A stretch of 17,337 nt of DNA, taken from the IMG/VR virus record IMGVR_UViG_2778261161_000005. One strand, given 5' to 3'. The notes beneath the pieces were generated by a model. The model was not told where the DNA came from, made no database searches, and saw only the letters and a list, made by a program, of their open reading frames with translations. The DNA comes from a virus (taxonomy: Duplodnaviria > Heunggongvirae > Uroviricota > Caudoviricetes). The translations under genes and the position numbers were made by a program. Numbering within the stretch: position 1 is the stretch's first letter; each line of letters opens with the position of its first letter. Shown one piece after another: positions 1,465 to 16,036 of this stretch.

Positions 1465-1827
1465 TTAATGACCTGCTGCGCGTAGTTTTCCGTCAGGTTC
1501 ACCGGCAAGAGTCAGTAATTGTCCCTGGTCTTCCTGCAGAATAGTCAGGCGACCACCGCGATTGACATACATCGGCGTTTCGGTGGTGTCTTCTTCGGAA
1601 ATTTTCCCGCGGTTAGTCGGGCGAACATATGAGAGTTTGTGTTTGATTTTCACACGGTTCTCATCAAATGGTTCGATTTCCAGGTTGAGTGAGACCTTAC
1701 CTTTGGTTTTCGTGTTCATCACACCGGAAGCGACTTCACTGAGAACTGCGCCGATTTTGGTTTCAAATACGCCGCCGTCCAGCTCCCCGATAAATGCCTG
1801 CACATCAGTACTGCGTTCGCTAGCCAT
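1465..1827 (-). CDS. small prophage protein, YfdP-like (120 aa); the track ORF 1465..2058 is trimmed to the ATG at 1825-1827
   Basis: The internal ATG (MASERSTDVQAF...) is preceded by GGAGCAGCAAA (SD GGAG). The upstream part of the track ORF is Cys/Arg-rich and lies inside the GC-rich noncoding stretch, so the longer start is unlikely. Confidence 0.55.
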   Translation of the reverse strand: MASERSTDVQAFIGELDGGVFETKIGAVLSEVASGVMNTKTKGKVSLNLEIEPFDENRVKIKHKLSYVRPTNRGKISEEDTTETPMYVNRGGRLTILQEDQGQLLTLAGEPDGKLRAAGH

Positions 1828-2423
1828 TTTGCTGCTCCTCATCATATCGACCCTGCAAGGTCGGTTGGTTTCTCCACAAAACAGAGAAGAACACCTGCGG
1901 TGGCAGCCGCCCGGATGGATTGGGTTATGAGCCCGTCGTCCGGTGATGCTCTTCTCTGTTTTGTAAAAAGAGCGGTACCAGCCGGAAGCAAGTGTACAAA
2001 CTGGTACCGCCAAAGCAGTGGCTGTTGTGGTGGGGTTGTCACTCAGGCGTATGGTCAACCTGACAATCCGGTGTCCTCAACGGGGAAAGAGTAACCCAGC
2101 CATACTTACCGCCGCGCCATTTCGCGGATGACCACAACGCTGAGAGCACTTAGCCAGTTACGGCACCACACTTTGTCGCGGCTCCATAAATGCCCTCATC
2201 GTTGCACCCTGGTCTCTTCCCAGGCGTCAAACCGGATCGCCACGCTGGTTAGGCGTCTTATCAGCATCATCATTGACTTGCACATTCCGGCTACCTGGTT
2301 TGTTTGCCCTAGCAAGGAGTGGATTGTCCCCTTTAACGTCCCCAGACCGCTAACGACGCATGTGCCATACGCCGTGTTACAACCAAATTTTGTTTGAATC
2401 TTGCCTGCCTCATGTTTCTTTTG

Positions 2424-4718: not shown

Positions 4719-4931
4719 TCATGAAAGGTAAACATTGGCAGCTGAAGGGCCACGCAGACCATTTATCCGGCAAAATTCCACGCGTAATCCGGTGGTAATT
4801 TCTTCTGCATCGCGGAGATTGAGCGCTGAAACATGAAGCTGGACATCGATACGACCATCGGATGGGGTGATAAGACCCTTGCCGCTTTTGCCGTCAAAGG
4901 TTTTGACAATTCCTGTCATTTTACGGGACAA
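4719..4931 (-). CDS. cspF: cold-shock-like protein CspF (70 aa)
   Basis: Translation [27 protein letters not shown]...[10 protein letters not shown] matches the CspF/CspH subfamily as recalled; divergent from cspB as in Qin. Confidence 0.85.
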
Positions 4932-5231
4932 AAAAATTCCTTAATACTGATAACTGGGCGCACTATACACACGTTCCTGAAGAAAGCTATAGTTTTTTGA
5001 TGGGGTTGAAGATGGCTGGATGTCTAAAATAAACATTGCTTCATATGTTCAACTATGCGTTAATGATTGCGTCGGTTTGAAGAACAGACGATATACGAAG
5101 TAGTTTACTAAAGCAGTTCTCATTTCAGGTGTTATTCACTTATTCCTTCTTTGAGTCTCTCCAATTAAGTACGAAGTCGTTTCTGTTATACAAGCCATTT
5201 ATGCCGAAAGGCTCAAGTTAAGGAATGTAGA

Positions 5232-5447
5232 ATGTCAAATAAAATGACTGGTTTAGTAAAATGGTTTAACGCTGATAAAGGTTTTGGCTTTATTTCTCCT
5301 GTTGATGGTAGTAAAGATGTGTTTGTGCATTTTTCTGCGATTCAGAATGATAATTTTCGAACCTTATTTGAAGGTCAAAAGGTTACCTTCTCTGTAGAGA
5401 GTGGTGCTAAAGGTCCTGCAGCAGCAAATGTCATAATTACTGATTAA
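5232..5447 (+). CDS. cspB: cold-shock protein CspB (71 aa)
   Basis: Translation [38 protein letters not shown]... carries the RNP1 (KGFGFI) and RNP2 (VFVHF) motifs; about 270 nt of upstream leader-length DNA as in cspA-family genes. Confidence 0.9.
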
Positions 5448-5728
5448 AATTCATAGTTTGTCTGTATACGATAACGAAGAAGGCTGATGCCTGAGTGGAG
5501 ATACAGACAGAGTGGTGAATATTGGATCTCTTTAATAAATAGTAAGGAGGTCCAATACATGAAACAATGGCCAGCATATTTGGCAATAACTTAATCAGGA
5601 AAAGTATGCTAACCATTGTGGTGAAGTGCAGGTTTGCTGCATGAATAGTTTTACAGCAGAAGCTAACTGCTGGCATAGCAAAACAAAGTGCGTAAGTGGA
5701 TGACTCCCACAAAAAGTACCACAATATT

Positions 5729-5810: not shown

Positions 5811-6032
5811 TCAAGCTACAGCTTTAAGATTTGTCTGGAATACTTTGTTGCAATGAGGGCAGATCAAAAGGGCACCTTTTTGTACTCTTGAAAAACTGTG
5901 TTCTGACTCTTGGGTGCAGTTTGGGCAGGAACATTTAACGAGATAATTACGGCGTGATTTTGAGTCTTTACGTTCTGACATAGGCTTTTCCTGTATAAAT
6001 GGCCGTATACAGTACACTAAATATGAAAACAT
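5811..6032 (-). CDS. small basic zinc-ribbon protein (CxxC...CxxC), function unknown; the start may be the internal ATG at 5979-5981 (56 aa)
   Basis: Track ORF; two CxxC pairs (CPNC, CPHC) and a basic N-terminus (SERKDSKSRR). The internal ATG has a better SD (AGGAAA) than the first ATG. Confidence 0.45.
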   Translation of the reverse strand: MFSYLVYCIRPFIQEKPMSERKDSKSRRNYLVKCSCPNCTQESEHSFSRVQKGALLICPHCNKVFQTNLKAVA

Positions 6033-6199
6033 ATCTCGTATTATTATTTAATATATGATTTTCTTTTAAAATAATTACCCACATTTTTAATGTGTCTGTT
6101 TTTTAGCGCCGTTGAGAACAACGTTTGCTATAAAAACTAACCCATAGACTCCGATCTTTTCAAACATATTGCACCATCTGTGTACATCGGGGTGAGGAT

Positions 6200-6415
6200 A
6201 TGAAATCAATGGATAAGTTAACAACAGGTATCGCCTATGGCACATCGGCTGGTAATGCTGGTTTCTGGGCATTGCAGTTACTCGATAAAGTAACTCCGTC
6301 ACAGTGGGCTGCAATCGGTGTGCTGGGTAGTCTGGTTTTTGGCCTGCTGACGTATCTGACAAACCTTTATTTCAAGATTAAAGAAGACAGGCGTAAGGTT
6401 GCGAGAAGAGAGTAA
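6200..6415 (+). CDS. essQ: class II (phage-21 S-like) holin/pinholin with dual-start motif
   Basis: Translation [28 protein letters not shown]... is 71 aa with two hydrophobic segments and a charged C-terminus; the MKSM N-terminus gives two possible starts (Met1/Met4); lies directly upstream of the lysis genes. Confidence 0.85.
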
Positions 6416-6419
6416 TCCA

Positions 6420-6971
6420 ATGACACAAGACTATGAACTGGTTGTGAAAGGAGTCCGCAATTTTGAGAATAAAGTGGCGGTAACTGTAGCCTTACGGGAC
6501 AAAAAACGCTTTGACGGTGAAATTTTTGACCTGGACATCTCGCTGGACCGTGTTGAAGGTGCCGCGCTGGAGTTTTATGAGGCAGCAGCCAGAATGAGAA
6601 TCAGACAGGTATTCCTGGATGTTGCTGCCGGGTTATGTGTAGGGGATGAGCAGTCGCCGGAAAAGCGCCCCATAATTTTAGAGGCGCAGAATGTGTGGAT
6701 AACCTACAAAGGAAAGCTACCGGGAAGAATTACTGGTTCTCTGAAGACGCCACCGACGGCATTGCGGTCAGAAAAAGATGATATTGAATCGCCCATTGAA
6801 AAACTGGAGGGCAGCGTCGCTGATCTGAATAAAAAATTGTCGGTGCTGATCCCTTCTGAAGATGAAAAAAAACGCCGCGATGAGCAGTTTGCGGCGTTTT
6901 ACGATTATTGCATTGAAGTTACTCGCAGGAATTTTGTGAAGATTTTTGAGGAGGGTAAATCTCTTCAGTAA
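6420..6971 (+). CDS. YdfR-like (DUF1327) lysis-cassette protein with a long C-terminal extension
   Basis: ATG at 6420 (MTQDYELVVKGVRNFENK...) with its SD inside the holin 3' end; the N-terminal roughly 100 aa resemble YdfR as recalled. The track start at 6399 is a TTG inside the holin gene. Confidence 0.6.
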   Translation: MTQDYELVVKGVRNFENKVAVTVALRDKKRFDGEIFDLDISLDRVEGAALEFYEAAARMRIRQVFLDVAAGLCVGDEQSPEKRPIILEAQNVWITYKGKLPGRITGSLKTPPTALRSEKDDIESPIEKLEGSVADLNKKLSVLIPSEDEKKRRDEQFAAFYDYCIEVTRRNFVKIFEEGKSLQ

Positions 6972-7179
6972 GCTTAATGGCGGACGCTGCAATTAATTCA
7001 GGAAGGTCCGCAAGGTCATCTGTCAGTGGATATGATGAAAAATCGGCGGCAGTTCTGTTAAGAAGCGCTTTAACTAATTCCTTTTCCTTCTCCGGCAACA
7101 AGTTGATTAGAGCTACGACTGCTTGCCTGAGTGCGATTAAATCAGCAAAAGTTTGTTTTGGTAGATTTGTGTAATCCAT
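6919..7179 (-). CDS. hypothetical small helical protein, antisense within the lysis cassette (about 86 aa)
   Basis: Minus-strand ORF with ATG at 7177-7179 preceded by AGAGGTG SD; the track start at 7185 is a GTG. It occupies the 320-bp gap between the YdfR-like gene and the lysozyme gene and overlaps the YdfR-like 3' end by about 50 nt. No recognisable family. Confidence 0.35.
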   Translation of the reverse strand: MDYTNLPKQTFADLIALRQAVVALINLLPEKEKELVKALLNRTAADFSSYPLTDDLADLPELIAASAIKLTEEIYPPQKSSQNSCE

Positions 7180-7292
7180 AGTCACCTCTGTGTTTATCAG
7201 ATTGACATCCTCCTCCCGCCAGTGCCCATCACTGGTGAGGTAAGATTTAACATATCCGGGGATTTGAAGCCGATAAATCCTGATAAATATCC

Positions 7293-8320
<1,028 letters not shown>

Positions 8321-8683
8321 ATTAATATTAAATCGGATTATTTTTAGCGCTGAATGTGAAATTTAAATAAAAAGGACTCTTCCATGAGTCAAAATCCTTG
8401 AAATCTTAAGGGTAAGATAAAAGGTCATTAGACAGAATGACACGTTTTATTAATAAATAAAGCTATTGTTTCATTCGTGTGTTTTTCTTTACAAAAGTAA
8501 TCCTTGCTATGGTTGGTTAATCATGCGTTAATGGTGTTCTGGTTTGTTACAAAATTATCTGAAGCAGTCATTGTTATAATTTTATTATTTGTACCTCTTG
8601 AGATCTCCTTGTTGGTTTTTCTCTCTGATATTTTTTTTCGGACCATTCTGCCCAAGGGCTAACTTCTTCAAAAGGTAATAATG

Positions 8684-8896
8684 ATGTCTAACAAAATGAC
8701 TGGTTTAGTGAAATGGTTTAACCCTGAAAAAGGTTTTGGTTTCATCACGCCGAAAGATGGTAGCAAAGATGTGTTTGTCCATTTCTCAGTTATTCAGAGC
8801 AACGATTTCAAAACGTTAACTGAGAATCAGGAAGTCGAATTTGGTATTGAGAACGGACCTAAAGGCCCCGCGGCTGTTCATGTAGTGGCACTTTGA
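8684..8896 (+). CDS. cspI: cold-shock protein CspI (70 aa)
   Basis: Translation [45 protein letters not shown]... matches CspI as recalled; about 360 nt of upstream leader-length DNA. The track starts one codon earlier (8681). Confidence 0.9.
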
Positions 8897-9100
8897 GGTA
8901 GAAAATATTACAAACCATATTCACTTTAGATGCCCGTGTTGCCATGGTTCTCAGTATAGAACATCATCTTTTGATGTTTCTGACAGGAATCCTTTCGGGG
9001 CAAAATGTATCTTTTGTAAATCAATGATGATTACATTTGATAATATTTCACAATACTTAAATGTTAGCCGTCTGTCGTTAGATTTAAGAAAGTGAAAATG

Positions 9101-11290: not shown

Positions 11291-11790
11291 TGCTGAATCA
11301 GGAAACCGCAAAGGCAGCACGAACCGATTCAGGTTATATCCTTCGCGCACCGAGACGAATGCGGGTTGCTGATGCCGTTGCTCAGTATATGCGGGTGAAA
11401 GACCGGGTGAATAACGCGTTATGGCGTGACTCGCCAGGTCCCGGCTATGTGCATTTCCCTGACTGGCTGGGGAGCTGGTTTTACGACGAACTGACGTATG
11501 AAGAGCGGAGCAGTGACGGGAAATGGAGTAAGCCGGGTCGCGGTGCCAACGAAGCTTTTGACCTGATGGTGTATGCCGAGGCTCTGGTCATTCTGCATGG
11601 ATACGAAAAGATCCGCTGGCCGGATGCACCGGAGTGGGCGAGCCGGGAAACCTGGCTGGAGTGTGTCCCGGACAGTACCGAACCGTCACCCACACCGGAA
11701 CCGGTATCCACGCCTGTTAAAAAACAAAAACGGAAGAAAACAGTAACTGACGATGTTAACCCCTGGCTGACTTCCGGAGGATGGTTATGA
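11290..11790 (+). pseudogene. terminase large subunit remnant (gpA-like C-terminal region only, 166 codons)
   Basis: Translation aligns to the C-terminal roughly 130 aa of lambda gpA as recalled (PGYVHFP vs PGAVHFP; RGANEAFDLMVYAEAL vs RRNEALDCFVYALAAL). The ATPase and nuclease core domains expected in a roughly 640-aa protein are absent. Confidence 0.6.
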
Positions 11791-15461: not shown

Positions 15462-16036
15462 TGGCATTCAGAATGAGTGAACAACCACGGACCATAAAAA
15501 TTTATAATCTGCTGGCCGGAACTAATGAATTTATTGGTGAAGGTGACGCATATATTCCGCCTCATACAGGTCTGCCAGCAAACAGTACCGATATTGCACC
15601 GCCAGATATTCCGGCAGGCTTCGTGGCTGTTTTCAACAGTGATGAGGCATCGTGGCATCTCGTTGAAGACCATCGGGGTAAAACGGTTTATGACGTAGCG
15701 TCAGGGGACGCGTTATTTATTTCTGAACTCGGTCCGTTACCGGAAAATGTTACCTGGTTATCGCCGGAAGGGGAGTTTCAGAAGTGGAACGGCACAGCCT
15801 GGGTGAAAGATGCAGAAGCAGAAAAACTGTTCCGGATCCGGGAGGCGGAAGAAACAAAAAACAGCCTGATGCAGGTAGCCAGTGAGCATATTGCGCCGCT
15901 TCAGGATGCTGCAGATCTGGAAATTGCAACGGAGGAAGAAATCTCGTTGCTGGAAGCATGGAAAAAGTATCGGGTATTGCTGAACCGTGTTGATACGTCA
16001 ACTGCACAGGATATTGAATGGCCAGCACTGCCGTAG
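15461..16036 (+). CDS. tail fibre assembly protein (Tfa), 191 aa
   Basis: Translation [39 protein letters not shown]... matches TfaQ/TfaR-type proteins as recalled; start overlaps the stf stop (TAATG). Confidence 0.85.

Follow-up and report, generated by a model that had tools for sequence, protein, structure and literature searches.

Between the DUF1327/YdfR-like gene and the lysozyme gene of IMG/VR virus record IMGVR_UViG_2778261161_000005 lies an open reading frame (ORF) that is antisense to late transcription, which raises the question of whether it is a gene and, if so, what a gene facing in that direction does inside a lysis cassette. The whole stretch of DNA analysed, 17,337 nucleotides (nt) long and referred to here as the window, is a Qin-like lambdoid prophage of Escherichia coli; the ORF is termed Y. 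Y is probably a genuine accessory gene of E. coli and Salmonella lambdoid prophages, a ‘moron’ in the sense of Juhala et al. 2000 (as cited in PMC4104026), carried as a unit of its own and giving a cytoplasmic product of the resident prophage. The gene and its ribosome-binding site, a Shine–Dalgarno (SD) sequence, are located as follows.

6919..7179, minus strand: gene Y, encoding an acidic protein of 86 residues (ORF, RefSeq coding sequence, PHROG match, homologues, substitution rates and structural model)
7183..7188, minus strand: SD sequence of Y, GAGGTG, read from the sequence (CACCTC on the plus strand)

An antisense gene in the lysis cassette

The minus-strand ORF extends over 6919..7185 in the ORF listing and would encode 88 residues if read from a GTG; an internal ATG at 7179 gives a product of 86 residues that begins MDYTNLPKQ. 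Because the GTG at 7185 falls within the SD sequence, and because RefSeq uses the same start, ATG 7179 is taken as the start codon and the 86-residue form as the product. The GAGG is spaced 5 nt from this ATG, and in the homologues from Salmonella and from locus L017 an SD sequence AAGGA stands 6 nt ahead of the start codon. Y fills the 321 base pairs (bp) that separate the end of the YdfR-like gene (6971) from the ATG of the lysozyme gene (7293), and its 3′ end overlaps that of the YdfR-like gene convergently over 53 nt (6919–6971). The initial annotation, made from the letters of the window, had described an 86-codon ORF with an SD sequence in a gap of about 320 bp, converging on the YdfR-like 3′ end, and was accurate on each of these points.

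It had also called the ORF unannotated, which is wrong for public data. RefSeq/PGAP holds an identical sequence, WP_001306174.1, as a ‘hypothetical protein’ (for example, C_RS27370 of CFT073), with coding sequences at matching coordinates in genomes 99.9–100% identical to the window, and the PHROG profile phrog_2572 covers residues 1–86 of the 86 with E = 1.2e-53. Neither entry carries a function, a description of context or a link to the distant Salmonella homologues, and in the literature no mention was found of the accession, locus tag or PHROG of Y.

The 303 bp specific to Y were matched in 315 of 5,426 complete E. coli genomes (about 6%), in 294 of them at a coverage of at least 80%. Carriers include the uropathogen CFT073, APEC O1, S88 and the commensal HS, and viable isolated phages also carry the gene (2H10, PhiR63_1, PhiR12_x, including PhiR12_2, and PhiR5_1). 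Among the GTDB species representatives, matches to Y were found in E. coli only, the Salmonella homologues having come from other searches; a search of IMG/VR yielded 80 near-identical copies and no new contexts.

Conservation of Y as a protein

A word-indexed search returned only E. coli copies at 85% identity or above, together with one short partial match in Salmonella. These close copies are uninformative on coding, being too near to one another for coding constraint to be parted from DNA identity. Exhaustive HMMER and profile searches recovered relatives of 89–108 residues, 41–50% identical to Y, in Salmonella enterica and in unassigned assemblies. The homologues P0020, P0021 and P0023–P0026 align with Y from end to end, 20 residues being invariant, and show an in-frame indel of 7 codons; P0019 (975 residues, eight matched stretches, E = 1.6e-10) was rejected as a homologue, being judged repeat-rich, with repeats inflating its score.

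In seven alleles drawn from three subfamilies, the frame of Y is the only one of the six that is open, the other five containing 2–11 stop codons in every allele. Between subfamilies the ratio of non-synonymous to synonymous substitution rates (dN/dS, Nei–Gojobori) is 0.25–0.35, with dS of 1.0–1.9. Because only this frame is open, and dN/dS is of this order among homologues of 41–50% identity, sequence comparison indicates that Y encodes a protein and is under moderate purifying selection. The initial annotation had named absence of a conserved frame at homologous loci as grounds for giving up its claim; this was looked for, and the frame was found conserved.

The two E. coli alleles of Y differ at 12 nt, with 8 amino-acid changes. 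Length variation is seen as well: at codons 30–34 (7078–7092, EKEKE) public alleles vary in frame by 6 nt, reading EKEKEKE, EKEKE or EKE, presumably through slippage in the GAGAAG/GAAAAG repeat, and two other public alleles have in-frame deletions near the C terminus.

The Y protein

Y has 13 acidic and 8 basic residues (net charge of about −5), and its sequence, as read, has no signal peptide, hydrophobic span or lipobox. An AlphaFold2 model, built from an alignment of 11 sequences, is a three-helix bundle (residues 8–26, 30–48 and 56–74) with disordered ends; the predicted local distance difference test score is 71.8 and the predicted template modelling score 0.43. No family in Pfam, NCBIfam or PADLOC is matched at threshold. 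The view that the protein is acidic and helical, with no recognised family, is therefore upheld by its composition, its all-helical prediction and these searches, and the profile search suggested alongside that view gave no significant family match beyond PHROG 2572.

Several candidate relationships were set aside. DUF1823 (PF08853), the label given to Y in the PhiR12_x records, scores 13.2 bits (E = 0.11) against a gathering threshold of 25 bits, and ABATE (PF07336), the best Pfam match, 14 bits (E = 0.078) against 24.4 bits. Foldseek comparison of the model with the Protein Data Bank (PDB) and BFVD gave a best E value of 1.7, the top PDB match being an AcrIIC4-like fold that is not significant (E = 2.8); a PDB profile search gave a best E value of 1.2. 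No PADLOC-DB 2.0 defence model matched at E ≤ 0.1, either for Y or for three other proteins encoded at the same site in other phages.

The Y unit and its signals

The gene is bordered by signals on both sides, placed as follows.

6865..6900, minus strand: intrinsic-terminator-like hairpin, from single-strand folds, starting 18 nt past the Y stop codon
7218..7236, minus strand: hairpin GCCAGTG-N5-CACTGGT in the presumed 5′ leader, from folds and alignment, with no U-tract on either strand
7249..7277, minus strand: candidate sigma-70 promoter, −35 TTTATC (7277–7272), 17-nt spacer, −10 TATGTT (7254–7249)
7270..7294, minus strand: near-invariant 25-nt block ATG(G/T)ATATTTATCAGGNTTTATC(G/T)G, from alignment, bounding the mobile unit on its upstream side

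Homology among the three subfamilies reaches about 115 nt beyond the Y start codon and ends at the near-invariant block. The alignments point to a small mobile unit, some 430 bp in length (about 6865–7294), made up of the block, a leader of some 60 nt, the SD sequence, the ORF and the hairpin with its U-tract. The block abuts or overlaps the lysozyme start codon and holds a direct repeat, (A/C/G)TTTATC-N3-(A/C/G)TTTATC; its core, ATATTTATCAGGnTTTATC, is identical in 7 sequences, including those from Salmonella, L017 and L020. At these last three loci it is kept though no lysozyme gene follows, and it therefore travels with Y. The prophage Qin of K-12 has no such block, its ydfR overlapping the start codon of rrrQ, and K-12 transcription-start data were for that reason dropped as a proxy. 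Possible readings of the block are an antisense promoter ancestral to the cassette, a binding site for a regulator and endolysin leader sequence.

Both hexamers (with a −10 of TATGTT or TATTGT) and their 17-nt spacing are kept in the three subfamilies while the spacer sequence diverges. From this pair we infer a weak sigma-70 promoter, with a predicted start near 7240–7245 and a leader of about 60 nt. The hairpin at 7218–7236 is common to E. coli loci with different cargo (L004–L006) and is partly kept in Salmonella. Another terminator-like hairpin of the minus strand, GCAGCCGACAGGCTGT with a T-rich tail (7312–7327), is situated in the first lysozyme codons, upstream of the putative promoter, which it could insulate; it could equally be there by chance.

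Downstream of Y, the minus strand from 6900 to 6865 reads AAAACGCCGC-N12-GCGGCGUUUU, then four more U, the U-tract amounting to eight U in the window. The hairpin is embedded in late-strand coding sequence (KKRRDEQFAAF), and its pattern is present at every Y locus examined. In 6 sequences all pairs of the 8-bp consensus stem are intact, and one of them has undergone a compensatory change, G-C to A-U, which recodes the late strand from KRR...AAF to RHH...VAF (RR/AA to HH/VA). Because this change alters the encoded amino acids, selection appears to act on the hairpin and not on the late-strand peptide. A consensus terminator scan missed the hairpin because of its loop limit of 8 nt. Rfam contains no known RNA family matching 6600–7450.

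Three insertion contexts

The Y unit occurs at three different positions in late regions and is antisense to late transcription each time. Apart from the position seen in the window, the homologue lies between Rz (DUF2514) and the small terminase gene (DUF1441) in Salmonella prophages, and downstream of the genes that follow antiterminator Q in L017 and L020, where the late-strand ORF starting just beyond the upstream block may be holin-like. At L018 and L019 the homologue again converges on a DUF1327 gene.

In every context a late-strand ORF runs through the hairpin and 53–59 nt into the 3′ end of Y. The C termini of these partners are KSLQ, KPTQRG and KLSQQE, and a motif, E(K/Q)KRRDE..AA(F/L)Y, is common to the E. 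coli and Salmonella partners. What similarity they have falls within 31 residues encoded by hairpin and overlap, 14 of them identical, and none is detectable between the 144-residue and 243-residue partners; in L004 and L006 the E. coli extension is found beside unrelated antisense cargo. A conserved late-strand partner was rejected on the ground that the similarity is confined to hairpin and overlap; the simpler reading, suggested by these sequences, is that upstream late ORFs simply read on into the inserted unit.

An antisense slot between ydfR and the endolysin gene

Comparison with phages that have no cargo or different cargo at this junction defines the following segments.

6756..7241, no strand assigned: extra DNA relative to cargo-less BP-4795, 486 bp (blastn against L008, the 6755/7242 junction corresponding to L008 1413/1422)
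6912..7214, no strand assigned: Y-cargo-specific DNA (blastn against L004, homology ending at 6911 and restarting at 7215)
L005 1894-2208, minus strand: slot cargo ORF, orf6 (104 residues) or its variant
L006 1803-2117, minus strand: slot cargo ORF, orf6 or its variant
L007 828-1100, minus strand: slot cargo ORF of 90 residues
L004 (Stx1a phage Stx1_14744, LC567821) 1618-2319, minus strand: long slot ORF, 233 residues from GTG

In BP-4795 (L008) the slot is empty, with about 50 nt from the ydfR-type gene to R. The cargo-specific stretch of the window consists of the Y ORF with 7 nt downstream and 35 nt upstream; phages with different cargo have other sequence in its place. Elsewhere the slot has at least three further occupants, all unrelated antisense ORFs: a 90-residue ORF in vB_EcoS-783R2, of which 82%-identical variants exist; the 104-residue orf6 of Stx2 phage 86, with a 77%-identical variant; and an ORF of about 210–233 residues in Stx1 and Stx2 phages (8 phage records). 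Each has its own SD sequence, as read from the alignment, and the same orientation as Y; the SD sequences of orf6 and the 90-residue ORF are canonical. The long ORF more likely starts at the ATG of ‘MLIYPAADL’, giving about 210 residues, with AGGAG 7 nt upstream. Just past its stop codon stands a terminator of its own, hairpin plus T7, and it has no annotation in LC567821, where a 263-residue plus-strand coding sequence is extended across it.

The other slot cargo has no Pfam or PADLOC match at threshold, and in NCBIfam one sub-threshold match, to the 90-residue protein. Common ancestry of the slot-mates was likewise rejected, hhalign giving the Y profile a probability of 0.1% against orf6 of phage 86 and 2.5% against the 90-residue cargo; by these profiles Y and the slot-mates tested appear to be unrelated or undetectably distant. 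G+C content is 42% over 6800–7300 and 47–53% in the flanking lysis genes, a modest difference.

Insertion between otherwise adjacent genes, a terminator-like hairpin and a shift in base composition, the signs by which morons are recognized in silico, are all present here. The suggestion in the initial annotation that an antisense gene at this place would be a moron is supported by the 486 extra bp relative to BP-4795, the separate SD sequence, the invariant block, the conserved hairpin and the three antisense positions. On a broader and tentative reading, the ydfR-type-to-endolysin junction of P21-type cassettes might be a dedicated antisense slot, in which a conserved, outward-facing promoter block and a shared hairpin flank at least four unrelated small cargo genes, the unit also moving to other late sites; the cargo would then be a set of factors, hitherto unrecognised, that are expressed in lysogeny from inside the lysis cassette of Stx and other lambdoid prophages, for instance phage-exclusion proteins or lysis safety catches.

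Proposed expression and function of Y

As a moron, Y would rely for transcription on the weak sigma-70 promoter of its unit and not on the Q-dependent late operon. Expression in the lysogen is the most plausible because Y faces that operon: the protein would be made mainly in the lysogen or before late transcription begins, and converging late transcription would damp it after induction. The product would be a soluble, acidic three-helix bundle, most likely cytoplasmic, that binds another protein. For its role we can offer a guess, which may well be mistaken, of a benefit to the lysogen such as excluding or hindering other phages.

A number of observations weigh against the moron reading. At short range constraint is weak: dN/dS is 0.59 between the two E. 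coli alleles (a value uninformative alone, with 12 differences), the 13 distinct alleles in 81 near-identical IMG/VR copies show 7 synonymous and 15 non-synonymous polymorphic changes, and of these 81 copies seven lack the start codon and one is interrupted by a nonsense codon. Some decay is expected for a dispensable gene in partly degraded prophages. The candidate promoter matches 7 of 12 consensus positions (3/6 and 4/6) and is weak; the promoter search upstream of 7180 on the minus strand that the initial annotation had recommended found none by consensus scan, and promoter-like sites from that scan are no more numerous in the region than in shuffled sequence. The block also precedes the endolysin gene of cargo-less BP-4795 (L008 1440-1475) and could in part be a piece of endolysin leader that moved together with the module. 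In Salmonella and in the L017 group the U-tract is broken up, and read on the late strand the hairpin resembles a terminator too. The literature yielded no transcription, transcription-start, ribosome-profiling or proteomic data for Y.

One alternative is that an antisense RNA, and not the protein, does the work: overlapping the end of the late ydfR-type ORF, and the holin region as well should termination leak, it would pair with late mRNA to silence leaky lysis genes in the lysogen or exclude superinfecting relatives. The convergent overlap of 53–59 nt kept in all three subfamilies and the conserved hairpin inside late-strand coding sequence would suit such an RNA, and STnc6030 provides a precedent (PMC7067206). 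Amino acids are conserved, however, while synonymous sites are saturated (dS 1.0–1.9, dN/dS about 0.3), an SD sequence and start codon are kept in every subfamily, the overlapped late-strand sequence is the module’s own DNA and not a conserved phage target, and no Rfam family matches the region, all of which makes this account unlikely. The protein might instead be a cytoplasmic lysis regulator, antiholin-like or binding the holin tail in the manner of T4 RIII, that sets timing or acts as a safety catch. Y lies in or beside a lysis cassette in all contexts examined, and it is small, soluble and acidic where the class II holin here has a basic tail. Yet the lysis systems beside it are unrelated to one another, a P21-type class II holin and phage lysozyme in the window and, in Salmonella, Phage_holin_3_7 and Phage_holin_8 with a GH19 endolysin; facing antisense, it is not coupled to late expression; the closely related cassettes of BP-4795 and K-12 Qin work without it; and no similarity in sequence or fold to known lysis regulators was found. 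We regard this role as quite improbable.

The overlap of a late-strand ORF with the 3′ end of Y in every subfamily, with similar ends and a shared motif, might instead mark Y as one half of a convergent toxin/antitoxin-like pair with the late-strand C-terminal extension or a 73-residue ORF. This is very hard to sustain when the similarity of the partners comes down to the 31 residues of hairpin and overlap, or to none, when the compensatory change in the hairpin alters residues of the supposed motif, and when the E. coli extension stands alongside unrelated cargo in L004 and L006. The weak constraint among near-identical copies, the start-codon losses and the single nonsense allele, together with the probably defective state of the window prophage itself and a narrow taxonomic range (E. 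coli and Salmonella), would fit a chance or decaying ORF without function, carried in prophage DNA. But frame, SD sequence, start codon and helix pattern are conserved at 41–50% identity with dN/dS of about 0.3, matches from 315 complete E. coli genomes, as well as viable phages, carry the gene intact, and the whole unit has moved between three genomic positions, so that a functionless ORF has very little chance of being the right description. The antisense-RNA and lysis-regulator alternatives are thus possible at low probability, and the toxin–antitoxin and non-functional alternatives are largely excluded.

Relation to known systems

The evidence for Y suggests no new kind of mechanism: it is probably an ordinary moron. 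Like other lambdoid morons it is a single small ORF in extra DNA of lower G+C content, with promoter-like and terminator-like signals of its own. The bor gene of phage lambda is antisense, just downstream of Rz, and its product is a lipoprotein shown to act in serum resistance. Y resembles bor in facing against the late operon beside the lysis genes, and the Salmonella homologue, placed after Rz, sits where bor does in lambda. Unlike Bor, Y has no signal peptide, no lipobox and no Pfam match to Bor or any other family; its gene, unlike bor, is inserted inside the lysis cassette, between the ydfR-type gene and the endolysin gene, with a putative terminator embedded in late-strand coding sequence.

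P2 and P4 prophage hotspots (PMC9122126) carry variable accessory and defence cargo. The Y slot shares with these hotspots the arrangement of conserved flanks around interchangeable cargo (four kinds, with an empty state in BP-4795), and differs from them in that its cargo consists of single small ORFs with no PADLOC match, in a lambdoid lysis cassette. STnc6030, an antisense RNA within the late genes of the Salmonella prophage BTP1, mediates superinfection exclusion (PMC7067206). The Y unit, like this RNA, is antisense to late genes of the resident prophage and presumably active in the lysogen; STnc6030, a non-coding RNA, works through base pairing, whereas the Y unit encodes a protein clearly under selection. 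In the literature on lysis-cassette morons and lambdoid hotspots, only analogies were found.

Y was already catalogued as a hypothetical protein and belongs to PHROG 2572; new here are the distant homologues, the evidence for selection, the limits and signals of the module, the three insertion contexts and the variable antisense slot. Should Y be expressed from the resident prophage, it joins the uncharacterised lysogeny genes, and some 6% of complete E. coli genomes have it. Small antisense genes have repeatedly settled at the ydfR-to-endolysin junction of P21-type cassettes, a cassette type frequent in Stx phages, and each of them is a cheap candidate for screens of phage exclusion or lysis control. 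The slot is also prone to mis-annotation, as seen in the pseudogene call for the YdfR-like gene, the cargo ORF absent from Stx1 records and the unsupported ‘DUF1823’ label in PhiR12_x.

Neighbouring genes and the prophage

The genes around Y in the window are the following.

4719-4931 and 5811-6032, minus strand: ORFs corresponding by offset to cspF and ynfU in the CFT073 and S19-141 annotations
6420..6971, plus strand: DUF1327/YdfR-like gene, 183 residues from ATG 6420 (190 from TTG 6399), Pfam DUF1327 E = 1.8e-41
7293..7826, plus strand: endolysin, an rrrQ-type phage lysozyme, Pfam Phage_lysozyme E = 2.6e-24, rrrQ in RefSeq

Over positions 6100–7900 the window matches many complete genomes at 100% identity and CFT073, APEC O1 and S88 at 99.9%. 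The initial annotation had assumed that late lysis operons are unidirectional; Y is indeed antisense, and the generalization was overstated, given the antisense bor gene of lambda and the minus-strand cspF and ynfU ORFs that stand between the antiterminator Q gene and the holin gene in the window. RefSeq treats the YdfR-like gene as a C-terminally truncated pseudogene of 6420–6755 only, and PHROG 2091 (183 residues) covers residues 8–190, that is, the whole ORF. Proteins of other phages share the C-terminal extension (SEKDDIES...FAAFYDYC), among them an L006 protein without the DUF1327 core, and the extension resembles a separate late-strand module that has been joined in frame. For K-12 YdfR, a 2026 paper in RNA Biology (PMC13232886) reports binding to the catalytic, N-terminal half of RNase E and co-purification with RNA, which may hint at what the DUF1327 gene next to the slot does.

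Compared with the S19-141 prophage, to which it is otherwise 99.98–100% identical, the window is missing 1.6 kb at 11396/11397. The missing segment falls within the annotated large-terminase gene of S19-141, and the window prophage is for this reason probably defective. Elsewhere in the window, Rfam matches above the gathering score comprise IS009 (RF02111) at 15804-16002 on the plus strand and two leaders of the cspA-type thermoregulator class, also on the plus strand, at 5071-5510 and 8537-8942, which precede the cspB-like and cspI-like genes.

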